Shown here: one piece after another, positions 761 to 52,834 of the stretch | Numbering within the stretch: the first letter of the stretch is position 1 | Layout of the letters: each line of letters begins with the position of its first letter | Source: Patescibacteria group bacterium | GTDB taxonomy: Bacteria; Patescibacteriota; Dojkabacteria; JAKAPS01 | NCBI GenBank assembly: GCA_025450075.1 | Contig: JANWIC010000006.1 | Coordinates: forward strand, 1-63,246 | Length of the DNA: 63,246 bases | Direction: 5' to 3' | Made by a program: the position numbers and the translations under genes | The notes under the pieces: model-generated | Seen by the model: only the letters and a program-made list of their open reading frames with translations | Database searches by the model: none | Told to the model about the DNA's origin: nothing

Positions 761-935
761 ATTCTCACAGATAATTTAGCGGGTGGTTAGTGAAAACAAC
801 TATGGGATTATACTCTGGATTTGGTTTAAATGCAAGGAAAAATCCTGGTTTTTAAATATGAGGGAGATAATATGGTATAACGATACATGGGAGAAGAGAT
901 TTGGTAAAATAGAGTATGAAAATTTAGAAAAAAAT

Positions 936-2216
936 ATGGCAAAATCTACAAAGACAGCGATGGAAATGAATGAGCAGGTAAAAACTGCTCTAGAAATGAT
1001 GGAATATACGAGCAATAATCTTTTTATTACTGGAAGGGCGGGAACTGGAAAATCAACTCTTCTTGAATACTTTCGGGATACTACAAAAAAGAATGTAGTT
1101 GTACTAGCTCCAACCGGTGTGGCGGCTATTAATGTTCATGGCCAAACAATACATTCTTTTTTTAAATTCGGAATAAATGTACGTCCGGATGGTATAACCA
1201 GAAGGAGAGATAAGGAAGGAATGTTTCAAAAGATTGATACTATCATCATTGATGAAATATCCATGGTAAGAGCTGATCTTTTGGATTGCATTGACATTTT
1301 TATGAAGCTTCATGGGAAGGAACCTTCATTACCATTTGGTGGAGTCCAGGTTATTTGCATAGGAGATCTCTATCAGCTTCCTCCTGTTATTACGCATGAA
1401 GAAGCCCCTATTTTTTTTGAAGAGTATACCAGTCCCTATTTCTTTGACAGCAAAGTCTTTTCACATATGCAATGCATGCGGATTGAATTGCAAACCATCT
1501 ATCGGCAAAAAGATGCAGAATTTATTGAGCTTCTCAATGCTGTTCGACAAGGAAATATTAGCGAGGAACTGCTTGCAAAGATAAACAGCAGGACATTCCA
1601 GCCAAATTCGGCTACTCTACATGATACCTATATATATTTAACCACAACGAATGCAAAGGCAGACCAGATAAACAAACAGAAACTTGGACAAATCAGATCG
1701 ACTAGTTTTTGCTATACAGGAGAGATAGATGGTGAATTTAATGAAAAAGAATTGCCCGTTGAAAAAGAGCTGCAATTAAAAAAGGGAAGCCAGGTAATGA
1801 TGCTAGTTAATGACCAACAAGGTAGATGGGTAAACGGAACTGTTTGCACAATAGATACATTAAGAAGTGATGAAATAGTGATCAAAATGGCGGACGGGAA
1901 AAAACATAAGATAGATCCATATACTTGGGAAAAACATAGATATTTCTATGATGAAGCAACTAAAAAGGTTTCAAGTGAAATTGTTGGAGAATATACACAA
2001 TATCCGCTCAAACTTGCATGGGCAATGACTATACATAAAAGCCAGGGAAAAACATTTGACCAGGTCATAATTGATTTGGGAAGAGGAGCATTTGCCCATG
2101 GTCAGGTATATGTCGCATTAAGCAGATGTAGAAGCCTAGATGGTATCATGCTTACTACTGCGATAAGAAAAGCTGATATCCTTATTGAAGAGCGGATTCA
2201 TGATTTTCTGGGATAG
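936..2216 (+). CDS. pif1: PIF1/RecD-family (SF1B) ATP-dependent DNA helicase
   Basis: Track ORF is 783-2216 (GTG). The region before ATG 936 (MAKSTK...) has no helicase character; ATG 858 is also possible. Walker A GRAGTGKST, Walker B IIIDEISMV, QLPPV, TIHKSQGKTFD and VALSRCRS motifs. Confidence 0.85.
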   Translation: MAKSTKTAMEMNEQVKTALEMMEYTSNNLFITGRAGTGKSTLLEYFRDTTKKNVVVLAPTGVAAINVHGQTIHSFFKFGINVRPDGITRRRDKEGMFQKIDTIIIDEISMVRADLLDCIDIFMKLHGKEPSLPFGGVQVICIGDLYQLPPVITHEEAPIFFEEYTSPYFFDSKVFSHMQCMRIELQTIYRQKDAEFIELLNAVRQGNISEELLAKINSRTFQPNSATLHDTYIYLTTTNAKADQINKQKLGQIRSTSFCYTGEIDGEFNEKELPVEKELQLKKGSQVMMLVNDQQGRWVNGTVCTIDTLRSDEIVIKMADGKKHKIDPYTWEKHRYFYDEATKKVSSEIVGEYTQYPLKLAWAMTIHKSQGKTFDQVIIDLGRGAFAHGQVYVALSRCRSLDGIMLTTAIRKADILIEERIHDFLG

Positions 2217-3090: not shown

Positions 3091-3178
3091 TTTTTTCTAT
3101 CCCAAGTATATCTCTCATTCATGATAAGTGGATGATATCTCTTCATCTTTACATCTTGTCGTAAATACAATAGAATTC

Positions 3179-4867
3179 ATGCATAAGCAAATTATGGAAA
3201 ACGAAGAAAACAAAAAAATTGCAGAATTACTGTTTCCGGACATTCATGAAACACTTGAAGATCTGGAAGCTGCTTATCCTCCAAGAAATCTTCCTGAAGG
3301 CGCAACTGTAACCCGCTTCGCTCCAAGTCCGACAGGATTTCTCCATATCGGGACTATTGCAAATGCATTAATAGCTGAACGTGTTGCACATACCTCTCAA
3401 GGGATTTTTATTTTACGAATTGAGGATACCGATAAAAAGCGTGAAATCAAAGGTGGAATTGATGAGATCATACATAATATTGAATCGTTCAATATTTCTC
3501 CTGATGAGGGAGTTATGAGTGAAGAAGTGCAAAAAGGTGCATATGGACCATATCTGCAAAGTCAACGTTTGAAAATATATGCTATTGCAGCAAAATATCT
3601 CGTTTCGCAAGGTCTAGCCTATCCATGTTTTTGTACAGATGAAGACCTCAAAGAAATTCGAAATGTACAGATAAGTCAAAAAGTAAAGCCGGGATATTAT
3701 GGTCAATTTGCAAAACATAGAGATATCTCACTTATTCAAATTCAGCAGGAATTTTCTCAAGGAAAACCTTTTGCTATCCGTATAAAATCAGATGCAAAAG
3801 TAAATGAAAAAATTCAGTTTAAAGATATGGTAAAAGGATCTCTTACCATGGCTGCAAATGATGTGGACTTTGTACTTCTCAAATCAGATGGATATGCAAC
3901 CTATCATTTTGCCCATCCGATTGATGATCATTTTATGCATATTACCCATATCTTACGCGCAGATGAGTGGCTTCCTTCAACTCCACTTCATTTGCAAATT
4001 TTCAGATATTTTGGTTGGAACGCTCCATATTATGCCCATGTATCACCAGTATTAAAAATGGATGGGTTATCAAAAAGAAAGTTAAGTAAACGAAAAGATC
4101 CTGAAGCAGGTGTAAAGTATTATACCCAGGAGGGATATTCATCGGAAAGCGTGATTACGTACCTGCTTAATCTGGCAAATTCAAATTTTGAGGATTGGAG
4201 AAGAACTCATCCAGATCTTCCCTACTCTGATTTTCCATTTCGGATTGAGAAGATAAATAACAGTGGGGCGTTGTTTGATTTACGAAAGATGCAAGATATT
4301 AGTAAGCAAGTGATGGCACAAATGTCTTCCCAACAAATGTATGATATGTATTTAACATGGGCCGAAAAATATGATCCGGAATTTGCAGAATTAATCAAAA
4401 AACAAAAAGAATATACATTGCAGATATTTTCAATTGAAAAGGACCAGCAAGCTCGAAGAAAAGATATTTATGCATGGAATCAGATGCATGAGTATATAGG
4501 CTGTTTTTATGATGAACTTTTTGAAAAATTACCATTCAATAAACAACTATTTCCAGAATTCCTTTCAGGAGAGGAGATAAAAGATATTATTAATGCGTAT
4601 TTGCAAGTAATTGATTTGAAAAAACCATCAGATCAATGGTTTAATGATCTTAAAGCAATTGCTGCGAAATTCAATATAGCACCTGATACAAAAACATTTA
4701 AAGAATCGCCAGCCGGAACATACAAGGGATATGTTGGGGATATCGCCTCAATTCTTCGAGTAGCGATCACAAAACGAAAGAACACACCTGATCTATATGA
4801 GATCATGAAAGTAATGGGAATAGAACGGGTAGTAAAACGACTTCAGGAAACCAAAGACCTCCTATAG
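3179..4867 (+). CDS. gltX: glutamate--tRNA ligase (bacterial type)
   Basis: RFAPSPTGFLHIGT (HIGH-type motif) and KLSKRK (KMSKS-type motif). Track ORF starts at GTG 3128; the first in-frame ATGs are at 3179 and 3194. Confidence 0.9.
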   Translation: MHKQIMENEENKKIAELLFPDIHETLEDLEAAYPPRNLPEGATVTRFAPSPTGFLHIGTIANALIAERVAHTSQGIFILRIEDTDKKREIKGGIDEIIHNIESFNISPDEGVMSEEVQKGAYGPYLQSQRLKIYAIAAKYLVSQGLAYPCFCTDEDLKEIRNVQISQKVKPGYYGQFAKHRDISLIQIQQEFSQGKPFAIRIKSDAKVNEKIQFKDMVKGSLTMAANDVDFVLLKSDGYATYHFAHPIDDHFMHITHILRADEWLPSTPLHLQIFRYFGWNAPYYAHVSPVLKMDGLSKRKLSKRKDPEAGVKYYTQEGYSSESVITYLLNLANSNFEDWRRTHPDLPYSDFPFRIEKINNSGALFDLRKMQDISKQVMAQMSSQQMYDMYLTWAEKYDPEFAELIKKQKEYTLQIFSIEKDQQARRKDIYAWNQMHEYIGCFYDELFEKLPFNKQLFPEFLSGEEIKDIINAYLQVIDLKKPSDQWFNDLKAIAAKFNIAPDTKTFKESPAGTYKGYVGDIASILRVAITKRKNTPDLYEIMKVMGIERVVKRLQETKDLL

Positions 4868-12335: not shown

Positions 12336-13622
12336 ATGCGGCAAACCAAAACTATGGCAGATTACATTGAATCTGGTGCTGTGGTCCCACCTGTGGAAAC
12401 AACACATAGAGAGTCATTTGATGAAATGATAGCACAACGGATGTTATCTACACTCAATACTATGATTTCTCTTATTACTGAAGGAAGATTTCCTTTTCAA
12501 ATATCTTTGGATGCCAATTCCCGTCTTCAATATTATATCCATCAGATATATAAAAAAGATATCTCTCCAAATATTCCTGAGGTATCGGTAACAGTAAAAA
12601 CATATCATAAAACTGAATTTAATGAGGATAGTTTGGGGGGATATCGTAAAGGGTATCCTGGAGAGAGAGCAATGAATCAAACTCCATCCCATTTAAAAAA
12701 TGAAACGTCATTGACTGGTGGGGTGCTCTATGTCCACAGTGAAGTAATTAGCCCTGAAGATCATTCACAGGGGTATTTGATAAACCTTTTACACAAGCAT
12801 TGGCTATACTTACAAACAAGGGCTAGTTCAGATGTGGTAGATCCGCTTGATAGATTACTTCTGGATGTGGGACCAGAAAAATTCGCAAGAAGTATGAAAA
12901 CATTCACAACTATGCATGCAAAGTATGGTAATGACTATGCAAATCGATATACATCTAGTCCTTATGAATTGCACTTGTATAATGAAAGACACGATGAAAC
13001 CTTACATGAAATTATAATGAAATTTGATATGCAAGGAAGATTAGTCAGAGCAGTTGTGATAAGAGAAATGCGTGAAGAAGAAAATAGATTCCTGCTGCAT
13101 ACAATGTTGGTTTTTAGAAATCAAGAACTAGTCTATTTCATGCAGCAGGAACCAGACGGAACATTTTTCCAAAGGAATGGAATATATCTTATTCCACCTT
13201 GGATATATGAGGCATATACTGATTATCTTGTTGGCAATCGTATTGAACCATGTAATATTCAAGATAGCGACGTATTACGATGGTGTTTTGAAAGAGCTCG
13301 AAGGGGAAGGCTATATGCACCTATTGCTAAGATACATGTTTATCGACTACCGCATAGAAGTATAAACAATTATTCAAGATATACTCCTAATGATCTTGCT
13401 TTCAGGAGACAAATTGACGAAAAGAAATTAAGAATTCTTCTTGCAACACGTACAAAGAAGGAGAAAATTCAGGGATTTAGATGGAGAAAAGGAAGAAAGC
13501 CATATGTCGGCAACTCTTCTATTTTTAGAGATAATGGATCAATCTATTTAATAGATAATAGAAATAAAAGAATGTTAACAGAAGATGAAGGGAAGCGATT
13601 GCTGTGGGAATGGGGAATGTAA
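12336..13622 (+). CDS. hypothetical protein (orphan, 428 aa, basic C-terminus)
   Basis: Long ORF with no motif I recognise. The ATG at 12336 overlaps a TATAAT (12332-12337), so ATG 12354 (MADYIESG) is an alternative start. Confidence 0.7.
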   Translation: MRQTKTMADYIESGAVVPPVETTHRESFDEMIAQRMLSTLNTMISLITEGRFPFQISLDANSRLQYYIHQIYKKDISPNIPEVSVTVKTYHKTEFNEDSLGGYRKGYPGERAMNQTPSHLKNETSLTGGVLYVHSEVISPEDHSQGYLINLLHKHWLYLQTRASSDVVDPLDRLLLDVGPEKFARSMKTFTTMHAKYGNDYANRYTSSPYELHLYNERHDETLHEIIMKFDMQGRLVRAVVIREMREEENRFLLHTMLVFRNQELVYFMQQEPDGTFFQRNGIYLIPPWIYEAYTDYLVGNRIEPCNIQDSDVLRWCFERARRGRLYAPIAKIHVYRLPHRSINNYSRYTPNDLAFRRQIDEKKLRILLATRTKKEKIQGFRWRKGRKPYVGNSSIFRDNGSIYLIDNRNKRMLTEDEGKRLLWEWGM

Positions 13623-18093: not shown

Positions 18094-19632
18094 TCAATGT
18101 AGAGGTCTGTTTCCCAGTAATTGGTCTAAAGTCCCTCTTCGTATATGTTCTACCATTTGATTAAGTGTAAAACCTCCTTCAGGATGATAATGATTTAAAA
18201 TTTGATCATGAATATAAGCAAGTATATCAGTTGTAATACCAGATAGACGGACAATTTTGATTTCTAATGGAACAGGCAATACTTGATACATTGAAGATTC
18301 TCTCAATTGTAGAATTTCACCAACTACCTGTAATTCTGGATGAGTTCTTTTAAATGCTTCTACTAAATAATTATGGGTTTGATCATCATCAGGAATTACA
18401 ATTGTAACTTGTGCGGGTTTAGATGAATTAAAAAATCTTGTTTCACGGAGTCCTGATAATGCAACAATATCTGCTATCATACTTAATCTCCCAGGGGGAT
18501 TATATGTGGTATCCATAAATGATATAGGGAGCATAAATCCTGTTACTCGAGGTGATTTATTATTTTCCATTACCAGACATATTGGCATTCTTTTTATTAA
18601 TCCAGATGGAAGGGACCCCTCACTATCTTCATGATTTCGAAAAATTGAACGTAAAATATCCCATGACTGATTATCAGAGGTAAATGGATATCCACCACTC
18701 CATGCAGACGAATTAATCATTACCAGATGGTCAAATATTATTCGTGGAACTTGAGTATCAAACTTTTCTATTAATGTTTTAACTTTCATTCTTGAAGCAA
18801 TTCTAATTAAATCGTTATATACTTGTGCGAAAAATTCTTGAACAAACTTTTGTTGATCTTCAATATGAAGAGGATTACTTAATCTGCTACGAGCATTATA
18901 ATAAGCTTCTGCAATGCATCGTTGTAGTATTAATTCTTGTTGATGCGTAAGAAATAATCTTGGCAATTCTAATCCACTTTGCTGTTCAATGTATGCAACT
19001 CTTCGATCAATTTCCTGAGGATCAACTTCTAGTGTATATGCATCAAATTGAATTCCATGTCTTTTATGTTCACGAGCTAAACTTACACTACTACTTCCTG
19101 TTATTAGCTTTATGGTAAAGGTTTCAGAAAATAGTTCCGGATATTTAGCGCGAAGTGTTTGTAAGCCTTTAAGTTGTGAGTCTAATGTATCGAGATCTAC
19201 ATGCTCTTGAAAAATGTAAATTTCATTTATAAGAGATTCATTTTTATGAAAAACAAATGAAAAATAAGGTATAAGGCCATCTGTAAATGGAGTTTTAAGT
19301 ATTGTCTCGGATTGATCTCCAGGGCCTCCTAAAACTCTACAAATTCTAGAACTTGCTAGTGGAGAAACAACTCTTCCTGTTAAGGTATTCTCTAATCTAT
19401 TGAGCATATAATTAGCAAATACTTGTGCCCTTATATCTACCATACAAGCTGTATCTGTCCTTAGATTTCTAGAAGTTCCCTCATAACCTCTGATTCGGTT
19501 CCAAAGATTTTCCCATTGATACAAACCGAATTCTTCTACCAGGGGATTTTCTGATTCAGAATATGTTGGATCGGAATTTGATCCATCTTCCTTAAGAATT
19601 CTTGCTAGAGTATATTCATTTAATATCTCCAT
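18094..19632 (-). CDS. hypothetical protein (orphan, 512 aa)
   Basis: Uninterrupted 512-codon ORF with balanced composition, no TM or signal peptide and no recognisable motif. Confidence 0.75.
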   Translation of the reverse strand: MEILNEYTLARILKEDGSNSDPTYSESENPLVEEFGLYQWENLWNRIRGYEGTSRNLRTDTACMVDIRAQVFANYMLNRLENTLTGRVVSPLASSRICRVLGGPGDQSETILKTPFTDGLIPYFSFVFHKNESLINEIYIFQEHVDLDTLDSQLKGLQTLRAKYPELFSETFTIKLITGSSSVSLAREHKRHGIQFDAYTLEVDPQEIDRRVAYIEQQSGLELPRLFLTHQQELILQRCIAEAYYNARSRLSNPLHIEDQQKFVQEFFAQVYNDLIRIASRMKVKTLIEKFDTQVPRIIFDHLVMINSSAWSGGYPFTSDNQSWDILRSIFRNHEDSEGSLPSGLIKRMPICLVMENNKSPRVTGFMLPISFMDTTYNPPGRLSMIADIVALSGLRETRFFNSSKPAQVTIVIPDDDQTHNYLVEAFKRTHPELQVVGEILQLRESSMYQVLPVPLEIKIVRLSGITTDILAYIHDQILNHYHPEGGFTLNQMVEHIRRGTLDQLLGNRPLH

Positions 19633-20375: not shown

Positions 20376-21332
20376 TTATTTTTTATATCGAGGTTTTTTT
20401 AAAAGAAGAAAGATAAGTATGAATGGAACTCTTAATGGAAATCTACCAGAATATGCAAGATACTGATCTTGTAATATATCGGGTTTGTATTTCATCTTAA
20501 ATGAATTTAGTCCCGAGAATGTATAGAACTTAGGGATACCCGTCCGATAAATTAATGAAAAGAGTAATCGTGCAACTGGATGTTTAATATATTTTATCGA
20601 ATCCAAAAGAGGAGCAATTCCTAAATTAACCCCATATCCTTCATTTAAAAGAGTCAGCATAGATGATATTAGTATAAAATCAACTCCTTCAGGAAAATAG
20701 GTATGGTGATCACATCTTCCGAATAACTTAATGTTCCATTGCGTGTTTAACTGTGTTTTGTAATACAACACATAACTGATGATATCGTTATTATGTTTTG
20801 CAACAAATAGCCGTTTTGAAAAATTATCACAGGTATGGCTATCTAGAACAAAATGGAGAGATTTATCATGCGGAAGCCGATTCATCGTTTCATTAATATC
20901 TTTAGTTATCTCTTCAATTATCAATCCGTGATTCTTCCCTATATGTAAAGATCTCCTAAGTGATTTTCTTTTCCCCTCAGTTAAGTCAAGTTTTTTTGTA
21001 AGAATGGCATCATATCCGATGAAAAAGAAATGGTAATTTTCTTTTTTAAGAATTTTTCTCATATCATTATCGATGCATAAAAAATATATATGCATTTTCT
21101 TTCCTGCAAAGCAGGCAAAAAATTCATGCAATACCTCTTCATAGTTAACAGGTTTTGCATGCGGGTTTCCAATTACGATCAATTGCTTCCCCACTTTGTA
21201 ATATTGGATATATCCGTGTGAGGCGGAAAAATAATACATGAATGAATTGCATGCAGTATAAAAGTAGGGGTTTGATGAATCGGTACTGATTCTTTCTACG
21301 TCAGTTTTGGAAAGGCATTGTATTATATTCAC
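20376..21332 (-). CDS. stand-alone MprF C-terminal-like (DUF2156 / aminoacyl-phosphatidylglycerol synthase catalytic domain) transferase
   Basis: By-eye alignment with S. aureus MprF C-terminus: IVIGNPHAK~LIMGEPAGD; LTEGKRKSLRRSL~LKGNKYKPFRNAL; PEGVDFILISSML..GYGVNLGIAPL~PNGVMDFLFLSLF..GYHYFDLGMAPL; FYTFSGLNSFKMKYKP~FYSFNGLHKYKKKFTP. No N-terminal TM/flippase domain. GTG start, GTGA overlap with the upstream gene. Confidence 0.7.
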   Translation of the reverse strand: MNIIQCLSKTDVERISTDSSNPYFYTACNSFMYYFSASHGYIQYYKVGKQLIVIGNPHAKPVNYEEVLHEFFACFAGKKMHIYFLCIDNDMRKILKKENYHFFFIGYDAILTKKLDLTEGKRKSLRRSLHIGKNHGLIIEEITKDINETMNRLPHDKSLHFVLDSHTCDNFSKRLFVAKHNNDIISYVLYYKTQLNTQWNIKLFGRCDHHTYFPEGVDFILISSMLTLLNEGYGVNLGIAPLLDSIKYIKHPVARLLFSLIYRTGIPKFYTFSGLNSFKMKYKPDILQDQYLAYSGRFPLRVPFILIFLLLKKPRYKK

Positions 21333-22483
21333 GGATGGATTATTGATAAGTAATAAGGAAGTAAGAGAAACTGGGTTATGAAAAAACCAAAAATGTAATT
21401 TAGCCGGAGAAATATCATCCAGACATTTCTTGCCTTTTTTTCATCTGAGTTGAAAGAAAGTCTTGCAACATTAATTGGATATGCAATAAGAACGATACCA
21501 AGAAGCATTGTGAGAGCTGATCGTGAAAGGATAAGAAAAATGATTGCAATACTATAACAAATGGTTGCATAATATGCAGTAATTCTTGCTCCCATAACTG
21601 TTGCGACACTCTTCATTCCAGCTTGTCTGTCGGAAGAAATGTCTTGAATAGCACCCATGGATTGGGAAGCCATCCCCCACATGAAGAAAGAAAATAGTAC
21701 CTCAAACGGTAAATTTCTTATCCCTATTGCAAAAAGCATAGCAAGAAGTGGAAGAACAAAATGAAAACTTGAATTTATCGAATCAAGAAATGGTATCTCT
21801 TTAATCCTGAATGGTTTTGCACTATATGTAATCGCAAAAAATATCAATGCAAGGAAAATTGGAATAAGTTTGGAACTGAAGAAAAGAAAATATAAAAGGA
21901 ATGGAATATGTGAACCTAGAAAGAATAAAATCATTTGTGTAAATGACTGGTCTACTTTCGCTCCATCCAACTTTCCTTTGCGTGTATTAACCGCATCAGA
22001 TTCCTTATCGAAATAATCATTGATTCCATAAACACAAAAATTGTATGGAATTATGGTATAACCTAATAAGATAATGATCGATGGGGTTAAGATTGTGTGA
22101 TAAATAAGAAGCGCCCAAATACCAGGAACAAATGTATTCGGCCATAATGTAGGACGGGATATGATGAAATATCGCTTTAAATTTTTGATACTTACATGGT
22201 AATCTGTTTCATATAAAATTGCAGGAAGGTATGCAAGACAAAATCCATAGAGCAGGTCTTCGATTGGCATATAAGGGATACGAATATTTAATGTATGAGC
22301 GATAAAGTGGAACCGGAATACCCCTGCTATGTTTAAAATATTATCAAAAATGAATGTGAATAAAAGGAATATTCCTTCATATATCCAGAATACTTTCTTA
22401 GTGGAGACTTTCGCGCCTGATATAATATCTATGAAAAAAAGTATGCTTCCAATTATGAGAGCGAAAAATAAAAAGTTATCCAT
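21329..22483 (-). CDS. fusion of lycopene-cyclase-domain subunit and UbiA-family lycopene elongase (CrtYf-CrtEb / LbtBC-like)
   Basis: The N-terminal ~100 aa form a 3-TM cyclase-type domain with MPIEDLLY. The remainder is a UbiA prenyltransferase with Asp boxes NDYFDKESD and DISSDRQAG. ATG 22483 (MDNFLFF) preferred over 22516 and gives an 8-nt overlap with the upstream gene. Confidence 0.75.
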   Translation of the reverse strand: MDNFLFFALIIGSILFFIDIISGAKVSTKKVFWIYEGIFLLFTFIFDNILNIAGVFRFHFIAHTLNIRIPYMPIEDLLYGFCLAYLPAILYETDYHVSIKNLKRYFIISRPTLWPNTFVPGIWALLIYHTILTPSIIILLGYTIIPYNFCVYGINDYFDKESDAVNTRKGKLDGAKVDQSFTQMILFFLGSHIPFLLYFLFFSSKLIPIFLALIFFAITYSAKPFRIKEIPFLDSINSSFHFVLPLLAMLFAIGIRNLPFEVLFSFFMWGMASQSMGAIQDISSDRQAGMKSVATVMGARITAYYATICYSIAIIFLILSRSALTMLLGIVLIAYPINVARLSFNSDEKKARNVWMIFLRLNYIFGFFITQFLLLPYYLSIIHP

Positions 22484-22784
22484 GTTTTTGTAAAAATGAA
22501 TAGAGTGATAAAGCAAATGTTGTTGAACTTGCTAAAAAGAATAGCTCTTCTATCGGATATTGATAAAAAAGAAATAATCCGGATAATTTATCAGGATTAG
22601 AGAACCATATTGATTGTGAAATTCCCCATATATCCCATAGGGTAAAAAAACAAATATTTAAACCCACTATTATTACTATTCGCATAAATTTTTGCTTTTG
22701 AACACTAAGCAGATAAAAGGATAGCCCAATTAGCATGGTACAAACAGATACAATGTAAAGCCAATGATGTAGTAGGTTTTGCAT
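22476..22784 (-). CDS. small lycopene-cyclase-domain protein (heterodimeric carotenoid cyclase subunit, CrtYe/CrtYc-like)
   Basis: 102 aa, 3 TM, YPIEELFF motif characteristic of the lycopene cyclase domain. Confidence 0.7.
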   Translation of the reverse strand: MQNLLHHWLYIVSVCTMLIGLSFYLLSVQKQKFMRIVIIVGLNICFFTLWDIWGISQSIWFSNPDKLSGLFLFYQYPIEELFFLASSTTFALSLYSFLQKHG

Positions 22785-22871
22785 AGATTTGATTATCGGA
22801 ATGATTGTATCATCATATTTATGGAAAACAAAAGTCTGAGGTATAGTATAATCAATTGATTGCTAATTATT

Positions 22872-24347
22872 ATGAAAAAAGTCATTGTAGTCGGTGGAGG
22901 ATTAGGCGGTATTGCAACTGCGCTTCGTCTTCAATCGCAAGGGTTTAATACAACAATTATTGAGAAAAATAATACATTAGGGGGTAGATTAAATACTTTA
23001 CAAGAAAACGGATACCGTTTCGACCTTGGACCTTCCCTTATTGAATGGGTAGAAGTATTTAATGAGCTGTTTTCCTACGTTGGAAAAGATATGCAATCAT
23101 TTCTTGATTTTCATCGTCTACCTATTGCCTACAAAATATATTTCAAAGATGGGGACAGTATTACAGTTTATGCAGATATGCAAAAACTTGGGAAAGAATT
23201 AGAAAAATATGAAAAAGATGCGAGTAAGAAACTCGAAGCTTTTCTGGAAGAAAATAGGAAAAAATTTGAAATGCTCATGAACCTGGTGTTAACAAAAGAA
23301 GCAACGTTGCAAATGTTTTTGAATCCTAAGTTGTTGTTTATAGCGGTAAGATTCGGACTACTATGTTCATATACTCATGATATAAAGAAGTATTTTTCAA
23401 ATCCAAAAATTATTGATCTATTATCATTCCAGAATATATATTTCGGAACCGATCCGGATAAAGATCCTGCAATTTATACCATCCTTCCCTATGGTGAAAT
23501 TGCTCTTGGAGTATATTACCTCCAAGGTGGAATATACAGGATTGTTGAGACTCTTGAAACAATTGCGATAAAGATGGGAATTTCAATATTAAAAAATACG
23601 GAAGTGACGAAAATCAATATAAAGAATGGAATAATTACAGGAATACTGACAAAATCAGGAGAGAATATAAAGAGTGATATTGTTGTCGTAAATGAAAATA
23701 TAGCGAGTGCATCACATGATCTGATCGAAGAGAACTATCAGGATTATTCAGATTCATATTTTAAAAAAGCATCATTTTCTTCCTCAGTGATAACAATTTA
23801 TTTAGGGTTGAAAAAGACATTTCCAAATGCACAACACCATATGTTTTTTGTTGCAAAAACAGTCAAAGAATCAATACATGATATGCAACATAAACAAACA
23901 AGTACCTGGGATCCTTCTTTCTATATTAATATCCCAAGCATAACTGATCCAACATGTGCTCAAAAAGGACATAGTGCAGCATTTGTATTAATTCCTGTTC
24001 CAAATATTCAATATATGAAGGAATGGGATATATCTTCTTTGAAAAAGATCGTGTATGATCATATTGAAAATGACTTAAAACTATCCGGATTTATCAATTC
24101 AATTGAGTTTGAATCGATTATGACTCCACGAGATTGGAAAAGAAAATTTAATCTTTATCATGGAAGCACATTTGGGATGTCTCTACAATTAAATCAATTA
24201 GGGCCATTCAGGCCAGCTTGTAAATCAAAAAAGGTAGACGGATTATATTTTGTTGGTGCAGATATGCATCCCGGATCAGGACTCCCTCCTGTTCTTTTAA
24301 GTGCTCGTATTACATCGGATAAGATTCTACATGAAACAAAAAGATAA
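22872..24347 (+). CDS. crtI: phytoene desaturase
   Basis: VIVVGGGLGGIATALRL FAD fold and C-terminal YFVGADMHPGSGLPPVLLSA. First ATG at 22872 (track: TTG 22860). Confidence 0.9.
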   Translation: MKKVIVVGGGLGGIATALRLQSQGFNTTIIEKNNTLGGRLNTLQENGYRFDLGPSLIEWVEVFNELFSYVGKDMQSFLDFHRLPIAYKIYFKDGDSITVYADMQKLGKELEKYEKDASKKLEAFLEENRKKFEMLMNLVLTKEATLQMFLNPKLLFIAVRFGLLCSYTHDIKKYFSNPKIIDLLSFQNIYFGTDPDKDPAIYTILPYGEIALGVYYLQGGIYRIVETLETIAIKMGISILKNTEVTKINIKNGIITGILTKSGENIKSDIVVVNENIASASHDLIEENYQDYSDSYFKKASFSSSVITIYLGLKKTFPNAQHHMFFVAKTVKESIHDMQHKQTSTWDPSFYINIPSITDPTCAQKGHSAAFVLIPVPNIQYMKEWDISSLKKIVYDHIENDLKLSGFINSIEFESIMTPRDWKRKFNLYHGSTFGMSLQLNQLGPFRPACKSKKVDGLYFVGADMHPGSGLPPVLLSARITSDKILHETKR

Positions 24348-25281
24348 GCTAGAACTAGGAAAAAGACTTTTGCGTATGCATGGAAGAACATACAGCATTG
24401 CCAGTTTTTTCTTTCCACAAAAAACAAGAGAAAATGTTTATGCTTTGTATGCTTTTGTTCGAACCCTTGATGATAAGGTTGATGAAAAACATGAAGATGA
24501 TGCTGAAATCAAAAAATATTTCGATGAAAAGCGAAATGAAATTATGGCGCATCAAAGCAATGATGATGCAATAATGCCTTTTATTACAATGTGTAAATTA
24601 CTACATATACAAGAAATTTATCCTATGACATTTATCAATGCTATGGAAAATGATTTATACGTGATCCGATATGATTCGTTTTCCACACTTGAAGAATATA
24701 TGTATGGGTCAGCGTATGTGATTGGAATAATGCTTGGCAATATCATGAGGGTACCAAAAAAATATATTCCGAATGCAGGGCTTCTTGGAAATGCGATGCA
24801 ATTGACTAACTTTTTGCGAGATATTGGTGAAGATCTTGACCGCGGACGGATATACATTCCGCAAGAATATTTAAAGATGTTTGGAGTATCAGAGACTATG
24901 CTTCAAAAAAGAATGGTAAACAAATCTTTTATTGAGTTATATGCTTTCTTAATAAAGAAAAATAGAGAAATGTATATGGAAGCAAATAAAGGAATTAAGT
25001 CTATCCCATCTTTCCGCTCAAGAATTGCAGTCAGTCTTGCTTCTCTTTTATATGAAAAAATTCTGGATAAGATAGAAGCAAAACAATACAAGATTTTTAA
25101 TGAGCGTGTATATATAACCACTTGGGATAAAGTCTTGAGTGTATTGTATGTGGTTGTTTTGGAATCTTTTCGATTGCCTTTTCTATTTCTTCAAAGAAAT
25201 AAATATTGGGGAATATTTACAGACGCAATCCATAAAACGATAGCTTTCATTTGCGCAGGATTTTGTAATCAAAGTGCTTAA
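24331..25281 (+). CDS. crtB: phytoene synthase
   Basis: Asp-rich boxes YAFVRTLDDKVDE and NFLRDIGEDLDRGRIYIP. ATG 24331 overlaps the crtI end by 17 nt (track: GTG 24301). Confidence 0.9.
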   Translation: MKQKDKLELGKRLLRMHGRTYSIASFFFPQKTRENVYALYAFVRTLDDKVDEKHEDDAEIKKYFDEKRNEIMAHQSNDDAIMPFITMCKLLHIQEIYPMTFINAMENDLYVIRYDSFSTLEEYMYGSAYVIGIMLGNIMRVPKKYIPNAGLLGNAMQLTNFLRDIGEDLDRGRIYIPQEYLKMFGVSETMLQKRMVNKSFIELYAFLIKKNREMYMEANKGIKSIPSFRSRIAVSLASLLYEKILDKIEAKQYKIFNERVYITTWDKVLSVLYVVVLESFRLPFLFLQRNKYWGIFTDAIHKTIAFICAGFCNQSA

Positions 25282-25283
25282 TT

Positions 25284-26600
25284 TTAACTGTTTGAAGATA
25301 ATATTCTTTTTGTCTCAACCTTATACGACTCAACATTCGGCTGATCAAACGTATTGACATGGAGTAATTTGCCAAGATACATCATTTCTATCATTTTAAA
25401 TTGCATAAATTGACCAATTGAAAACAATGAAAGTGATTCAAGGTCAACTGATATAAATGGAAGATTTTTATGCTCATATGTTACCATGACACCTTCTAAG
25501 ATCGCATGGAGAATATCAGAAGTTGATTTAGATGCGATGTTATCAACAAGTCCTTCCATTGTTATTTCTTGTGGAAGAGAAAGAGACTCATCTGAGTTAA
25601 AAGCAAATACAAATTCTGTCATTTTGTCTTTCGGACCTCCAAGATATAACTGGCCAACAGAGTGCAAGTCAGTAGATCCAATAGATAAGTTTGGAGTAAT
25701 TCCAGTATTTACTATATTTCCATCAAGATCTTGTTCTTTGCCGATACTTTCTCCCATGAGCTGCCTGTACCATTTTCCAATTGATTCAAAATTTGATTGG
25801 AAGATAAAAGTATCATGAATAGTTTTACCTTGTTTAAGCTGGTTGAATTGTGCAATTGCAGATATAGCTGCTGGATTTTGTAATATGTTATGTGATAAGC
25901 AAGTATTTCTCATATCCAATGCACCTTGCAATATTTCCTTTGTATTTATCCCTGCTGCTTCAAGAGGAAAAATCCCCACAGGAGAAAATACACTAAATCT
26001 TCCTCCAACCGGTTTTGGAATTGGGAGACATGCAATACCCATCTCATGAGCTTTGTTCCATAAATGAGAATCTTCATCCGTTATAGCTATAACATTACGA
26101 AGTTCTTGTGCAAATATTTGAGAAGCATACGTATGTAACAGTTCAAAGTTTGCTACAGTCTCGGTTGTACCGCCTGATTTTGAAATAAGGACAATGAGAA
26201 CTTCTTCAGGTGTTATTCCCTGAGATTGTAATGAGGAACAGGTTCGTTTCATTTGTTCATTATTTACTGTATCCAAAAAAAGCATTTTAGGGTATCGATG
26301 TGGCTCAATCATGTCAAAAAAGCCATAGAATGCATCATAGATAGCCTTGGTTCCAAGGTTCGACCCTCCTATCCCGATATCAATGATATATTTAATTTTA
26401 GAGAGATCAAAATTATTTGCTAATGAACGTGACTTCTCATACAAATCATTATCACCCGGCATTAATATTGAAGATTCATACACTTCATACTCATGTCCAT
26501 CTACAACTTGTTGAAGTATATCAATGTATGGATGAAGAGATTCACCAGTCTGGATAAACGTATCTTCGGATACTTTAGAATGAGAAAAGTTTAATTTCAT
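25284..26600 (-). CDS. pgi: glucose-6-phosphate isomerase (short type)
   Basis: IGIGGSNLG, SKSGGTTET and GGRFSV motifs. ATG at 26600 (the track start at 26609 is TTG). One nt separates it from the transaldolase stop. Confidence 0.85.
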   Translation of the reverse strand: MKLNFSHSKVSEDTFIQTGESLHPYIDILQQVVDGHEYEVYESSILMPGDNDLYEKSRSLANNFDLSKIKYIIDIGIGGSNLGTKAIYDAFYGFFDMIEPHRYPKMLFLDTVNNEQMKRTCSSLQSQGITPEEVLIVLISKSGGTTETVANFELLHTYASQIFAQELRNVIAITDEDSHLWNKAHEMGIACLPIPKPVGGRFSVFSPVGIFPLEAAGINTKEILQGALDMRNTCLSHNILQNPAAISAIAQFNQLKQGKTIHDTFIFQSNFESIGKWYRQLMGESIGKEQDLDGNIVNTGITPNLSIGSTDLHSVGQLYLGGPKDKMTEFVFAFNSDESLSLPQEITMEGLVDNIASKSTSDILHAILEGVMVTYEHKNLPFISVDLESLSLFSIGQFMQFKMIEMMYLGKLLHVNTFDQPNVESYKVETKRILSSNS

Positions 26601-26601
26601 A

Positions 26602-27462
26602 TTATGCAAATAATGTATTTATATCCTGCATGAATTTCTCAACCCCTTTTGTTGTCAGTTCATGTTGAATATCGAATTCGGTATATGGCAATTGAAGATT
26701 AAGATCTTTATATGGAATATCTTGTAGTGAAGGAGTGTTATAGGAGAATTGTTCATCAGGAACAGGCATCCCTTGTTTGGCCCAATCATCTATTACTGAA
26801 AATGGAATTGTTATGATGTCTGAATGCAATGCCAGTGCTGCCATCAATTGGTTAACATTGCGGATACTTGCTGCAAGTACCTCTACATGATGGTCAGAGT
26901 TATTAAACATTTGTAAAATATTTCGTACAACTGATATACCGTTTTGTCCAATATCATCAAGCCGTCCAATAAAAGGAGATACAAAAGTACTTCCCCTTTG
27001 TGCTCCATTTGTTGAGCTATATACAGCTGCTGCCTGGTTTTGTGAGAAACATAATGTCATATTTACCCGGTTTCCATCCTGGGAAAACTTTTGTGCTGCT
27101 GCAAGACCTGCAGGAATAATAGGGAATTTAATATGTGCATTTGGAATCCACGAATACATTTCATATGCCTGATGAAGCATATCGTCAGTAGTTGTTGAAT
27201 AATCTGCAAAAACCTCGATTGAAACAGATCCGTCAGGAATGAGTGAAGATATGTTTTGTACAATCCCTTTATATAAAGGAAAAATATTTTCTCGAGTAAC
27301 TTGACCATTTGCTTTCATCTCCCCTATTTCCGGCACTTTCACAAGAAGTGTGGGATTAGTTGTTTGACCATCAAGAAAACCAAGGACATCTATGGCTTTT
27401 TTTGTTTCTGCCGGATCACCGCTATCTAAAAAAATCTTTGAGGACAGGTGTATGGGTCTCAT
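26602..27462 (-). CDS. tal: transaldolase-family protein
   Basis: FLDSGDP...GQTTNPTL and HIKFPI (Schiff-base Lys context). Confidence 0.8.
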   Translation of the reverse strand: MRPIHLSSKIFLDSGDPAETKKAIDVLGFLDGQTTNPTLLVKVPEIGEMKANGQVTRENIFPLYKGIVQNISSLIPDGSVSIEVFADYSTTTDDMLHQAYEMYSWIPNAHIKFPIIPAGLAAAQKFSQDGNRVNMTLCFSQNQAAAVYSSTNGAQRGSTFVSPFIGRLDDIGQNGISVVRNILQMFNNSDHHVEVLAASIRNVNQLMAALALHSDIITIPFSVIDDWAKQGMPVPDEQFSYNTPSLQDIPYKDLNLQLPYTEFDIQHELTTKGVEKFMQDINTLFA

Positions 27463-46407: not shown

Positions 46408-47460
46408 ATGGCAGAGCAGGATACAGGACAAGACGGACAATATTTTCATCCTGATGGAGCATTCTCATCTCCAATGACCATAAATCCGCAATCTGTCGCT
46501 GAAATTCTTTCAGCGGTAGAAAGGATTAATTATGGTGATAATGCGAGGAGGGTAACTCCTGAAGCTATTGCAGATCCAGGAAAGTTGGTACATCCTGAAA
46601 CTGCTCATGGATTTGAATTAGCTTCAAAAGCGGCTGCTGCTGCTCCTATCATCGCCTCAGAAGCACTCTCTCAAGAAGATAAAACTATTTATCCTTTAAC
46701 TTTAGGACATAGAGAAGTTTATGAAATTTATCCAGTTGTAGAAGGTATATCAAAATTTCTTCATGCGGTATGGAATCCATTGGGCAATCTATTTGATAAG
46801 GTTGTTGACCGTTTTACCTCACCATTTACTTCGAATTTACATTATCTTGGTCTAAGCATATGGAAACTTACAGAACGGTTTAAGAAATCAAAAAATCCCC
46901 GTGAAGATTTTGTAAATGAATTAAAAAATTTATATGAAATAATGAATGGAGAACATGAAGTAAACAAAAGCCCTAAAAAGAATGTCGCTAAAATTATTCG
47001 GGATTTTGCAAGAATTCGGCTTAATCCCCAAAATGTTATAAATAGTAGGACCCGAGAAAATTTCCCTATCTTATCAGAAATACTGCCATACTTTCTATCA
47101 CCTACCGGGAAAGTATTTAAAGGAAAGAACTCCATACCGCAAGCCACTCCGGAGATTCTTAGGGGATTACATGCATTTCTGCTAAAACAAGGTATCAATA
47201 ATTTACCTCCAATCAGTGAAGTTCAAGAAGACTGGATTAGGAGATTAATAATGAGAATACCTGCTATCCAAGGAAAACTTGAAAGAGTTGAGACTGAGCT
47301 TCCTAATATTCTCGAAGCTATTTATGAGCTTACTCCTTCAAATGGAAAAGAGTTTGAAGAAGCTTTGATGGGTCTTGCAAGAACCATTTATCAAAGAAAG
47401 ACTAACGGTATAAAAGGGATACAGATATTTGATGGACTTAATCCATTTAGAAGGCATTAA
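46408..47460 (+). CDS. hypothetical protein (orphan, 350 aa)
   Basis: Uninterrupted ORF with no recognisable motif. Confidence 0.7.
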   Translation: MAEQDTGQDGQYFHPDGAFSSPMTINPQSVAEILSAVERINYGDNARRVTPEAIADPGKLVHPETAHGFELASKAAAAAPIIASEALSQEDKTIYPLTLGHREVYEIYPVVEGISKFLHAVWNPLGNLFDKVVDRFTSPFTSNLHYLGLSIWKLTERFKKSKNPREDFVNELKNLYEIMNGEHEVNKSPKKNVAKIIRDFARIRLNPQNVINSRTRENFPILSEILPYFLSPTGKVFKGKNSIPQATPEILRGLHAFLLKQGINNLPPISEVQEDWIRRLIMRIPAIQGKLERVETELPNILEAIYELTPSNGKEFEEALMGLARTIYQRKTNGIKGIQIFDGLNPFRRH

Positions 47461-47543
47461 AATTTACCTAAAGATTTTTCCTGTTATTCAATATCCCTAA
47501 CTTTTATCCTGTTTGACTCAGTCATATATATTTGTCATGATGT

Positions 47544-48482
47544 ATGAAGAATAATATGAGTAATACCCATTATCATGCAATTAGAGACAAATGGATTGCC
47601 CGACATGACGAGGCAAAAAACCTCTTGCTTGAAAATCATGCACGAGCATATGAAAAAGCAAAAAAGGGTCTGACACCTCAAAAAATTCTTGCCGGATCAT
47701 TAGGAAGCCTTGCACTTTTAAATGCTTCTTCTGCTGCAGCTATTCCTTTTACCCAAAACACTGTTGTACTAGCCAGTTCTGCTAATCTTCCACAATTTGA
47801 GACAATTTCTGACACTATAAATACTAAACCTGATTTTTCTGAACAGACACTTATCAAAGACTTAACCCCATCACTTCCATCAACTGTGTATGATGGATTA
47901 AATGATTCTCAAAATACGAAACTTATACAAACACTTTCTCAGTATTTCAACGTTCAAGTAAAATCTGAAATTAACGGGATAAGTTTGAATACTAATTATG
48001 GAATAATTGGACAGGAACAGCATTTAGCTCTCTATCCGGGAGATTCTATTCAAACTCATTTTCAAACACTCTCAGATAATGAAAGTTTTAATTCTTATGG
48101 TATTGCACCAGGACGAGGAGCATGGGGATATTTTGCATCTTCAAAAGAAGCACTTACGCAACAAGATATTGATCGCGAGAAATATTATATCGCTGTACAG
48201 ACATTTCTATCTCCTGGATACATCCAGAATTCACAAAAATATTATGATTTTTTTAAATACAGAAAAGTTTTAGTAGTGAATCCTTCGAATGGGAAAGCTA
48301 TAGTTGCAGATATTGGAGATGCTGGACCATCACCATTTACCGGAAAACAACTGGGGGGTTCTCCAGAAGTGATGAGATATCTCCAGCGTGTAGATGGAAG
48401 ACAAAGAGGACCAGTACTCTTTTATTTTATTGATGATACTGATAATACTATCCCACTTGGTCCAATTAATATTGTAAAATAA
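47544..48482 (+). CDS. membrane-anchored exported protein with RlpA-like double-psi beta-barrel (DPBB) C-terminal domain
   Basis: Anchor ILAGSLGSLALLNASSAAAIPF. C-terminal GRGAWGYF ... YYIAVQTF ... RKVLVVNPSNGKAIVADIGDAGP...GKQLGGSPEVMRYL follows the RlpA/DPBB pattern (G.aSwYG ... V.N..NGrs..v.i.DrGP ... DLS..a...L). Confidence 0.45.
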   Translation: MKNNMSNTHYHAIRDKWIARHDEAKNLLLENHARAYEKAKKGLTPQKILAGSLGSLALLNASSAAAIPFTQNTVVLASSANLPQFETISDTINTKPDFSEQTLIKDLTPSLPSTVYDGLNDSQNTKLIQTLSQYFNVQVKSEINGISLNTNYGIIGQEQHLALYPGDSIQTHFQTLSDNESFNSYGIAPGRGAWGYFASSKEALTQQDIDREKYYIAVQTFLSPGYIQNSQKYYDFFKYRKVLVVNPSNGKAIVADIGDAGPSPFTGKQLGGSPEVMRYLQRVDGRQRGPVLFYFIDDTDNTIPLGPINIVK

Positions 48483-50300: not shown

Positions 50301-52172
50301 ATGGATCAGGATTCAGATACTACAAGACAAGGACAATTACAACCGCTAGATGAGTTATTTAGTCGAGAATCTAATCAAATGGAAGTGCCAAACGATATCT
50401 TTGTCCTCTATTTGGATTTGCTAAGAAGATTTCTTTCTGATTCACCAGCTCAACCAAATCGAGAATTGGATTCTAATACAGGATGGATAACTGCCAGTTT
50501 GATTACTCATATAGAAGAAATCGCAAGGGTATCAATACGAAACGATGCTATACTATTAATGGAAGCTGCACATGAGGCGAATTTGAGTATTAAAGAATAT
50601 GTACTAAATCAACGTATTAAATCCGGTATGCTTTGTATTAGCATAAATGGAATAACTGTAGATTGGAATGATCTGTATCAAGATGAACAAATTATGAATG
50701 GGATTCATGTTAATCTTGCCCAAAATGGACTAGTAACGGTAATAATTTCAAAAAAAACAATAGATCGAATCATAGAAAAAACAGGAGCAAAAAAGGTTGA
50801 AGATAAAAAAATTGGGGGATCTGTATCTGTTTTACCAAATGGTTGCCAAATGTTATACATCCAGGGAGAAAATATTGAGGATAATCTCAGTGTTGCCGTA
50901 CATGAAATGCATCATCGAATTTTTAATGCATTATTTGCTGGAAAGATTGACGGAGATACAGATTCAAAAGTATTTAGTGATTCATTAATAAAAGCAAATA
51001 GCGGAATGAAATTATTTATTGATGAACTGATAGCATATATGACAACAATAACAGTTGATATGAAATCAACTACAATACGTACCCATCCTGAAAGTTTTTC
51101 TCCAAATAAAATTTCTTCCTTTATCTATAAATTTATTGTTGAAGAGGATGGAGATATGTTTATCACCTCAGAAGAGCTTTTAAAAATTGGAAAGAATATT
51201 TTGTCTATGGTTTCTGCAATGTTTTATGTTGAAGATGGTAGAGCTGTAAACAGATTATCATCTGCGATGTTAAATACACTCTATAGTGTAGCAGTATTGG
51301 ATCCAGATGCATCAGATGAAGTGATTGCTAAAAGAATTTCTCGCGAGATAGCAAGGACGTTAGATACTAATGATGTTACAGGTATGCTGTTGGAGTATGC
51401 TCGGTATGGAAAAAGAAAAAACTATTTAATCGGGGGATTAAGTGAAATATTAACGCATAAGGGAATATCAGAAGAAGATGCGTTATGTCTCATTCAATAT
51501 TTATCTTGTATTGAAGAAACAGACATTAATTCTAAAAGGCAACTCATAGCAGACGTTTTATCAGGAGGGAATATATCTTCTTTGTTAGAAAGCCAGTTAC
51601 AAGAACCAAGGTTATTTTATCAAAATTTGATAAAGCTATATAGAAATATTAGTAATAATGGATTTGTTACCGAAGATGCTTTGACAGAGAAATCGTTCAG
51701 GACATTAGCTCGCATCTTAAAAGTAGATCAACGTGAAGTAATTAAAGCATTAGGAAATGAAATGTATGAGCAACCATGGTTGACATGGGATGTTGCAAAT
51801 GAATTTGTTTCACATTTTAATGATGAACAGGATATTCCTCTGAACCTAAAGAAATGTGAAAGAGAATATATTGCAAGTATATTGAACTTAGATACAGACA
51901 AAATACCAGAAGCAATTATTACATATCTTAATTGGTTAGATGAAAATAATACCCTTACTGTTGTGGATCAATATGGAAGATTCAGTTATGATAAACGAAT
52001 TAATTATATATCCAATGCAACTGATGAATCTGGTCTTCATCTGATAATATCTGAATTACATTGGAAACTTTTAGAAAAACCATTTGAAGCATTAACTGAA
52101 ACAGAAAGAGAAGAACGAAATATTATTACTAATGCATTAGGAAGTCTAATCGCTTATAATATATTAATCTAA
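50301..52172 (+). CDS. large orphan protein with HExxH zincin-like motif
   Basis: 623 aa. VAVHEMHHRIF (nt 50901-50915) followed ~35-40 aa later by FIDELIAYM (possible third-ligand Glu). No signal peptide. Confidence 0.7.
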   Translation: MDQDSDTTRQGQLQPLDELFSRESNQMEVPNDIFVLYLDLLRRFLSDSPAQPNRELDSNTGWITASLITHIEEIARVSIRNDAILLMEAAHEANLSIKEYVLNQRIKSGMLCISINGITVDWNDLYQDEQIMNGIHVNLAQNGLVTVIISKKTIDRIIEKTGAKKVEDKKIGGSVSVLPNGCQMLYIQGENIEDNLSVAVHEMHHRIFNALFAGKIDGDTDSKVFSDSLIKANSGMKLFIDELIAYMTTITVDMKSTTIRTHPESFSPNKISSFIYKFIVEEDGDMFITSEELLKIGKNILSMVSAMFYVEDGRAVNRLSSAMLNTLYSVAVLDPDASDEVIAKRISREIARTLDTNDVTGMLLEYARYGKRKNYLIGGLSEILTHKGISEEDALCLIQYLSCIEETDINSKRQLIADVLSGGNISSLLESQLQEPRLFYQNLIKLYRNISNNGFVTEDALTEKSFRTLARILKVDQREVIKALGNEMYEQPWLTWDVANEFVSHFNDEQDIPLNLKKCEREYIASILNLDTDKIPEAIITYLNWLDENNTLTVVDQYGRFSYDKRINYISNATDESGLHLIISELHWKLLEKPFEALTETEREERNIITNALGSLIAYNILI

Positions 52173-52364
52173 AGTTTCTAAATTTTAGGTTCTTTATCTT
52201 GAAATATTTTTACATTTTGATCTTCCTTTTGCAGATTCTCATCCATATGTTATGATCTATTGTCTTTCAATTTATACCTTTCCCATGTTAAATCTGATTT
52301 AATATGCCTCATACTTTAAGGATAAATATAGTAATTCATGAGTTTTAAATGATAGAAGATACTT

Positions 52365-52815: not shown

Positions 52816-52834
52816 AGTTACTTTGATAGATCTT

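Follow-up and report, generated by a model that had tools for sequence, protein, structure and literature searches.

A 63,246-nucleotide (nt) stretch of contig JANWIC010000006.1, called the window below, carries a divergent cluster of five genes at positions 20376–25281 that we predict to make a cyclic, dihydroxylated C50 carotenoid by way of lycopene, with a probability of about 0.65. All five open reading frames (ORFs) are intact. Two on the plus strand encode members of the phytoene desaturase (CrtI) and phytoene synthase (CrtB) families, and three on the minus strand encode a 102-amino-acid (aa) lycopene cyclase subunit, a second cyclase subunit fused to a UbiA-superfamily prenyltransferase, and a stand-alone DUF2156 protein. 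A preliminary description of the window, made by reading the sequence, had named these five products, and profile searches bear the names out. The ORFs, their divergent layout and the overlap of crtI with crtB are as that description placed them, and the four motifs that it quoted (YPIEELFF, MPIEDLLY, NDYFDKESD and DISSDRQAG) are all present.

In the proposed pathway, CrtB would convert two molecules of geranylgeranyl diphosphate (GGPP) to phytoene, which CrtI would desaturate to lycopene. At each end of lycopene, the fusion's UbiA domain would then add a C5 unit derived from dimethylallyl diphosphate, the reaction of CrtEb and LbtC. The N-terminal domain of the same protein would pair with the 102-aa subunit as a heterodimeric cyclase, which would close the elongated ends into rings. 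The end product would be a dihydroxylated cyclic C50 carotenoid residing in the membrane. The substrates, the product, its ring type and the source of GGPP are inferred.

The Elongase Domain and Its Family

The UbiA domain scores 90.3 bits on PF01040 and 218.3 bits on NF009608 (PRK13105; cutoff 217). The next models are NF010119 (143 bits) and NF009516 (128 bits; cutoff 205), and the models for quinone, heme and chlorophyll prenyltransferases, among them ChlG, UbiA and MenA, give 41 bits or less. For calibration, NF009608 returns 474 bits for the protein at the crtEb position in Corynebacterium, 438–449 bits for proteins of Arthrobacter, Kocuria and other actinobacteria, and 325–355 bits for proteins of the Saccharibacteria type. 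An alignment of six fusion proteins, that of the window included, has 88 invariant columns; these cover both Asp-rich motifs of UbiA prenyltransferases (NDxxDxxxD and DxxxD), and the window protein has NDYFDKESD and DISSD in them.

A neighbor-joining tree of 139 UbiA domains (284 trimmed columns, 200 bootstraps, with Escherichia coli UbiA, MenA and CyoE as outgroups) places the domain within the CrtEb-type clade in 193 of 200 bootstraps, apart from the three E. coli enzymes, as a C50 elongase of the kind first proposed would be. The family matching NF009516 also lies outside that clade; three proteins whose best match is that model (P0048, P0051 and P0054) form a separate group, a sister family in the tree. 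Within the CrtEb-type clade the window's domain is sister to a Saccharibacteria clade of elongases fused to glycosyltransferase-2 (GT2) domains in 120 of 200 bootstraps, and branches off before every other member in 44 or 45; it never (0 of 200) falls in a small clade with actinobacterial cyclase fusions. These placements come from a distance method, with the window's domain on a long branch. Taken with the profile scores, they support the domain as a true, though highly divergent, member of the CrtEb-type lycopene elongase family.

In a collection of 5.8 billion proteins, nothing matches the fusion better than at 41%–42% identity over the UbiA part. Its relatives have three architectures: an elongase alone (~285 aa), a cyclase::elongase (~396 aa), and an elongase::GT2 (~671 aa); two clusters of 671-aa proteins include members that carry names from Candidatus Saccharibacteria at NCBI. 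A search of the fusion against the sequences of the Protein Data Bank (PDB) gave no match, and an AlphaFold2 model built from the six-sequence alignment was discarded (mean predicted local distance difference test score 56).

A Complete Pair of Cyclase Subunits

We collected 82 related loci, of which 80 came from a scan of the species representatives in GTDB and two were reached via proteins P0011 and P0003; none of the 80 comes from the genome of the window. Two cyclase-domain ORFs stand directly upstream of the elongase in 78 of them, and the window has the same co-oriented series of first cyclase, second cyclase and elongase. From the 78 first-position and 78 second-position cyclases of these loci we built one hidden Markov model (HMM) each. 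The 102-aa protein scores 43.2 bits on the first-position model against 13.8 on the second; for the N-terminal domain of the fusion the order is reversed, with 32.5 bits (E = 9e-12) on the second-position model against 5.7 on the first. Each also keeps the motif of its type, WD...PIEE in the 102-aa protein and FDN...PIED in the fusion. Scores and motifs together support the view that the window encodes a complete cyclase heterodimer, one of each paralog in canonical order, and that the subunit fused to the elongase is the same one as in LbtBC. On a general model the 102-aa protein clears the curated cutoff of the TIGR03462 lycopene cyclase domain (44.2 bits; cutoff 39.4), and it reaches 26.1 bits on Pfam PF18916 (cutoff 27). 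The C40 cyclases CrtYc/Yd belong to the same domain superfamily as the C50 cyclases, and it is linkage to the elongase alone that argues for a C50 rather than a C40 substrate here.

The paired subunits bear directly on an alternative for the product, a bacterioruberin-type C50 carotenoid that is hydrated and has no rings. Earlier work interpreted lycopene elongases from Patescibacteria as genes for bacterioruberin (PMC9948471). The top NCBIfam match of the window's CrtI is NF058655, a model for bifunctional desaturase/3,4-desaturases (388 bits, below its cutoff of 640), which also agrees with such a product. We nevertheless regard it as very unlikely, because two intact cyclase subunits of conserved paralog types are present and because a second desaturase (CrtD type) and a CruF-type hydratase are both missing among the window ORFs scanned with Pfam (60 of the 63 that are at least 120 aa long), which include a single CrtI-family gene. 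The UbiA domain, too, scores 218 bits on NF009608 against 128 on NF009516.

Predicted Lycopene Supply

Profile searches give the crtI product 380 bits on TIGR02734 and 99 bits on PF01593, and the crtB product 194 bits on PF00494. Both proteins are remote from anything in the databases: the best CrtI homolog among the 5.8 billion proteins is 36% identical, and the globally nearest CrtB relative 34%. These nearest relatives lie on metagenome contigs in clusters of crtI, crtB, a P450 gene and a lycopene cyclase gene, so the lycopene module and the C50 module of the window may have separate histories.

Some CrtI-like proteins considered as comparators (P0218, P0219 and P0232, from Patescibacteria and Clostridia metagenome-assembled genomes [MAGs]) were dropped, their partners being ABC1 kinases and not carotenoid genes. 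In Falkowbacteria (L087:10001-12696), Paceibacterota (L088:10001-12690) and a Clostridia MAG (L093:10001-12777), the gene that follows the one for a CrtI-family oxidoreductase is in every case that of an ABC1-family kinase, with no other carotenoid genes nearby, a conserved pair distinct from carotenogenesis.

Divergence, Chain Length and Activity

Several observations weigh against a cyclic C50 carotenoid as the product. The UbiA domain has a long branch in the tree and only just exceeds the NF009608 cutoff. The N-terminal domain of the fusion, which was first described as a cyclase domain like the 102-aa protein, remains under the curated cutoffs (22 bits on PF18916, 28 bits on TIGR03462), and its assignment draws on the second-position HMM. 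CrtB reaches no NCBIfam equivalog cutoff, and its best relatives among the PDB sequences are C30 enzymes, the dehydrosqualene synthases (CrtM). The scanned ORFs of the 63 kb window contain no match to the GGPP synthase family (PF00348). Finally, the closest homolog of any of the five proteins is about 41%–42% identical at most, which makes functional extrapolation riskier than usual.

Three of these observations (the CrtM relatives, the equivalog cutoffs and the GGPP synthase search) would fit a C30 backbone made from farnesyl diphosphate by a CrtM-like synthase, or an otherwise non-canonical one, from which elongase and cyclase would form products of the C35/C40 type. The ranking of CrtM enzymes first is biased, however, since bona fide C40 CrtB structures are few or absent in the PDB. 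The nearest relatives of CrtI and CrtB belong to C40-type clusters with P450 and lycopene cyclase genes, and the genome may encode a GGPP synthase outside the window. The window's CrtB has Ser where the CrtM of entry 8is6 has Phe (SKAF), a residue that limits chain length in CrtM; HpnC likewise has Ser, and this position favors neither chain length. On balance a C30 origin seems unlikely.

The lack of crtE in the window, the strong divergence of the proteins and the borderline curated scores of the elongase and of the N-terminal cyclase domain might also be expected of a horizontally acquired relic that no longer produces pigment. Against this, the five frames are intact and joined by overlapping start and stop codons, the residues invariant across the six fusion proteins are kept, both Asp-rich motifs included, as are the PxE(E/D) motifs of the cyclases, the base composition at third codon positions (GC3) is fully that of the host, and 86% of the window lies in ORFs of at least 100 aa. 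With its frames open, its catalytic columns conserved and its codon composition like that of the host, the cluster is improbable as a dead relic, and we continue to favor a working route to a cyclic C50 carotenoid.

Gene Layout

The three minus-strand genes are linked by overlapping start and stop codons (Table 1). The TAA stop of the small cyclase gene and the ATG of the fusion share 8 nt (ATGGATAA), and the TGA stop of the fusion and the GTG start of the DUF2156 gene share 4 nt (GTGA). On the plus strand the 3′ end of crtI overlaps the start of crtB by 17 nt. Alternative starts exist for three of the genes: an in-frame TTG at 22860 for crtI, judged less likely than the ATG at 22872; 24301 beside 24331 for crtB; and, for the fusion, a TTG at 22516 that would give 395 aa, beside the ATG at 22483 used in the 384-aa protein on record.

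The 87 base pairs between the two arms are presumed to be a bidirectional promoter region. They contain a TATAAT box 19 nt 5′ of the crtI ATG and, beside it at 22850–22861, a perfect 12-base-pair palindrome, AATCAATTGATT, which could be an operator; its frequency is at the chance level for an AT-rich window. A scan of the cluster for promoters and terminators found fewer sites than in shuffled sequence. The GC content of the cluster genes (30%–34%) and their GC3 (21%–29%) are the same as in the window overall (33.5% GC), which argues that the cluster is resident DNA and neither an assembly chimera nor a recent import from a high-GC donor.

Beyond the plus-strand arm, pgi (25284–26609) and tal (26602–27462), both on the minus strand and overlapping by 8 nt, converge on the end of crtB; the stop codons of crtB and pgi are 2 nt apart. 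The arrangement of tal and pgi recalls bifunctional TAL-PGI enzymes.

Table 1. Features of the carotenoid cluster, with positions in the window
Feature	Position	Strand	Basis or remarks
crtI, phytoene desaturase family, 491 aa	22872..24347	+	ATG start, MKKVIVVGGG...; TIGR02734, PF01593
crtB, squalene/phytoene synthase family, 316 aa	24331..25281	+	PF00494
Divergent intergenic region, 87 bp, between small cyclase gene and crtI	22785..22871	.	Sequence read
Small lycopene-cyclase-domain subunit, 102 aa, first-position (CrtYe/LbtA-like) type	22476..22784	-	TIGR03462, first-position HMM
Cyclase::elongase fusion, 384 aa	21329..22483	-	One uninterrupted reading frame; profile searches, alignment
Fusion, N-terminal cyclase domain (CrtYf/LbtB-like), FDN...PIED motif	22208..22471	-	Second-position HMM
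Fusion, UbiA-superfamily prenyltransferase domain, lycopene elongase type, NDYFDKESD and DISSD	21359..22186	-	NF009608, PF01040
Stand-alone DUF2156 / LPG_synthase_C protein, 318 aa	20376..21332	-	PF09924

Origin of the Fusion

Fusion of the second cyclase to the elongase is not rare and is fairly common among actinobacteria. The two genes are in frame as one ORF in 17 of the 82 related loci, including those of Kocuria, Paenarthrobacter, Arthrobacter, Leucobacter and an Actinomycetaceae genome, and the architecture is also present in proteins P0003, P0011, P0017, P0022 and P0029. The actinobacterial fusions themselves fall into at least two separate clades. The window's fusion probably arose independently of them, as it never groups with actinobacterial fusions in the bootstrap trees and its nearest relatives are the UbiA::GT2 fusions of Saccharibacteria. 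Recurrent fusion is plausible because the unfused genes overlap at their junction, where loss of a stop codon yields a fusion of equal length.

Most of the 80 GTDB loci belong to Actinomycetota, ten to Saccharibacteria or other Patescibacteria, and one to Chloroflexi. Full clusters of two cyclases and an elongase occur in Candidatus Saccharibacteria, in another Patescibacteria MAG and in a Chloroflexi MAG, and lycopene elongases in Patescibacteria were reported earlier, as bacterioruberin genes (PMC9948471). A C50 cluster outside the actinobacteria is therefore less unexpected than the preliminary description had supposed. Nine of the loci from Saccharibacteria and other Patescibacteria (L032:248-6378, L002, L007, L008, L011, L027, L033, L073 and L077) have two cyclases directly upstream of the elongase, and in one clade among them the elongase is fused to a GT2 glycosyltransferase. 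Two cyclases together with a GT2 domain suggest that these organisms make cyclic, possibly glycosylated C50 carotenoids and not the bacterioruberin proposed for them (PMC9948471).

A Coupled Aminoacyl-Transferase-Like Gene

The DUF2156 protein scores 73.7 bits on PF09924 (cutoff 27.5), the catalytic domain of aminoacyl-phosphatidylglycerol (PG) synthases. Its residues 32–311 align to 4v36, the catalytic domain of the Lys-PG synthase of Bacillus licheniformis (E = 2.8e-15); it aligns also to 5vrv, 6lv0 and proteins of the LpiA type, and keeps the C-terminal motif FSGLxSFKxKYKP. Unlike MprF, it is without an N-terminal flippase or membrane domain: no hydrophobic segment of 1.6 or more was found (Kyte-Doolittle, KD-19), and the MprF equivalog NF033480 gives 70.7 bits against a cutoff of 600. 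In a full HMMER pass over 1.84 billion representative proteins, its nearest relatives are 24%–28% identical (E = 9e-12).

The GTGA overlap of stop and start argues for co-translation with the elongase, and the gene is most likely co-expressed with it. Gene overlap and position are all that would make it a member of the pathway; the protein may tailor the pigment or, in the manner of aminoacyl-PG synthases, aminoacylate a membrane lipid. We lean slightly toward the view that it has nothing to do with carotenoids and is an ordinary flippase-less aminoacyl-PG synthase that stands downstream by chance. Its alignment with the Lys-PG synthase catalytic domain covers the full length, and none of 81 related elongase loci has a homolog of it in its flanks (0/81); the GTGA overlap speaks the other way, and so does its position, which is where the sister Saccharibacteria clade has the glycosyltransferase domain fused to its elongase. 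This view concerns the fifth gene only and is compatible with a cyclic C50 product of the other four.

The same overlap and the same slot, both of them positional evidence, are what point to a pigment-tailoring enzyme. Such an enzyme would stand in for the Saccharibacteria GT2 domain and use aminoacyl-tRNA to esterify the terminal hydroxyls of the C50 pigment, giving a charged carotenoid. We consider this a doubtful, long-odds proposal. Relatives of the fold, such as VlmA of valanimycin synthesis, aminoacylate small molecules, and we know of no aminoacylated, charged carotenoid that has been described.

Genomic Background

The window is AT-rich, as first described (33.5% GC), and roughly as orphan-rich, with no Pfam match for 18 of the 60 scanned ORFs. 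It does not have the decaying character that had been attributed to it: under genetic code 11, the best-fitting code, ORFs of at least 100 aa cover 86% of a stretch that is compact and intact. An alternative genetic code as the source of the impression of decay was rejected, since recoding of stops leaves the ORFs no longer. A viral or phage origin was also rejected; there was no match to viral contigs, and ten orphan proteins had no match among PHROGs. The remaining genes are ordinary cellular ones, among them gltX, uppS, znuABC, pgi, tal, an aldehyde dehydrogenase gene and genes for ABC transporters. The polyprenyl synthase, rhodopsin and carotenoid oxygenase families had no match in the 60 scanned ORFs, in agreement with the preliminary description; the sole prenyltransferase besides those of the cluster is the cis-prenyltransferase UppS (2182–2961). 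No tRNA, rRNA or other Rfam match was found in the window.

Large ORFs of 312–623 aa without a match in Pfam or PHROG lie at 18094–19632, 12336–13622, 46408–48482 and 50301–57576. A run of three such ORFs (623, 504 and 540 aa) at 50–58 kb is broken only by a nitroreductase-like gene.

The host is unlikely to belong to Actinomycetota or Bacillota, given the absence of Shine-Dalgarno sites: the motif precedes 4 of 63 start codons (ORFs of at least 120 aa) against a background of 9.5%, and G makes up 5%–14% of the bases at –16 to –1 of the window's start codons. TATAAT is enriched about six-fold just upstream of starts, and 15 of 18 matches end 6–25 nt before the start codon, which points to leaders that are very short or missing. 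Loss of the anti-Shine-Dalgarno mechanism in the host is a possible reading. By a crude measure, this start-site pattern resembles that of one Falkowbacteria locus and that of the contig carrying the closest GltX relative.

The GltX protein itself (a glutamyl-tRNA synthetase of the ~553-aa type, 3128–4867, plus strand) points in another direction. Its best match among 5.8 billion proteins is 57% identical, and its named matches are almost all from Clostridia or other Bacillota MAGs at ~50%, plus one from Sericytochromatia; the contig of the closest relative (L082) has nothing else in common with the window. This affinity conflicts with starts that lack Shine-Dalgarno sites, which leaves transfer of the gene or a deep-branching lineage as explanations. 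Low GC, starts without Shine-Dalgarno sites and Clostridia-labelled GltX relatives all agree with the non-actinobacterial background proposed at the outset.

A PIF1-family helicase (783–2216, plus strand) shares 42% identity with proteins of Aurantimicrobium and of one Microbacteriaceae MAG. The genes for these relatives lie ~7 kb from C50 clusters of their own (L013, L020 and L064), and the helicase is the only non-carotenoid gene that the window has in common with the freshwater actinobacterial loci at this level of identity. The sharing is probably a coincidence.

Implications

Actinomycetota and haloarchaea are the classical producers of C50 carotenoids. An active cluster here would extend the synthesis of cyclic C50 carotenoids to a very poorly sampled, AT-rich bacterial lineage that does without Shine-Dalgarno sites. 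C50 clusters of the LbtA/LbtBC type and the related clusters of Saccharibacteria were already known, and the cluster does not overturn current understanding. What is new is the set of five extremely divergent proteins, the Shine-Dalgarno-less host, a fusion that is probably independent, and the coupled gene for an aminoacyl-transferase-like protein. The cyclase::elongase fusion would have arisen more than once, the likely route being loss of the stop codon between overlapping genes, and its repeated appearance suggests that elongation and cyclization gain from physical coupling. Divergent enzymes of this kind are useful starting points for the engineering of C50 and C60 carotenoids, and the aminoacyl-transferase-like gene is a lead to a possible new carotenoid decoration.

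Comparison with Known Systems

The bacterioruberin pathway (LyeJ, CrtD and CruF) occurs in haloarchaea and in Arthrobacter. It resembles the proposed pathway in its related UbiA-type elongase and in the supply of lycopene by CrtB and CrtI. It differs from it in that the window has cyclase subunits and an elongase domain that misses the cutoff of NF009516 (128 bits against 205), the model that we assume to represent the LyeJ side.

Another comparison is with the C50 carotenoids decaprenoxanthin of Corynebacterium glutamicum (crtYe/crtYf/crtEb) and sarcinaxanthin of Micrococcus luteus (crtE2/crtYg/crtYh). These systems, like the window, combine two cyclase subunits of ~100 aa with an elongase of the CrtEb type (NF009608), and the order of first cyclase, second cyclase and elongase recurs in Corynebacterium loci L051 and L070. 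In C. glutamicum and M. luteus the three are separate proteins, whereas in the window the second cyclase and the elongase are fused. Which ring is formed (epsilon, gamma or beta) is not readable from the window sequence.

The preliminary description had mentioned a fusion of this kind in Dietzia, and it is real: in the beta-cyclic C50 pathway (C.p.450) of Dietzia sp. CQ4, lbtA overlaps lbtBC, LbtA and LbtB form a C50 beta-cyclase, LbtC is the elongase, and the cyclase and elongase activities of the fusion system have been demonstrated experimentally (PMC6393565). The window has the same plan, a small cyclase gene that overlaps a gene for the second cyclase fused to the elongase, with like domain order and like paralogs. 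Its UbiA domain is 33%–39% identical to those of actinobacterial fusions, whose example loci exceed 60% GC where the window has 33%. Compared with the Dietzia type, the window is without a crtE or MMPL gene nearby and has the DUF2156 gene coupled downstream. In the actinobacterial locus L001 the order is crtB, crtI, small cyclase and fusion, whereas crtI and crtB in the window are divergent from the other genes and not upstream of them.

The layout of the window is met again in the uncultured Saccharibacteria locus L032, where crtI-crtE-crtB diverges from first cyclase, second cyclase and UbiA::GT2 in the same two-operon arrangement. This locus has the best match to the window's CrtI (32%) among the 80 elongase loci from GTDB representatives, and the Saccharibacteria UbiA::GT2 clade is nearest to the window's UbiA domain (41%–42% identity). 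L032 has crtE between crtI and crtB, whereas the window's cluster is without a GGPP synthase gene. The second cyclase of L032 stands on its own, and its elongase carries GT2 at the C terminus; in the window it is the second cyclase that is fused to the elongase, and the DUF2156 gene occupies the slot of GT2.

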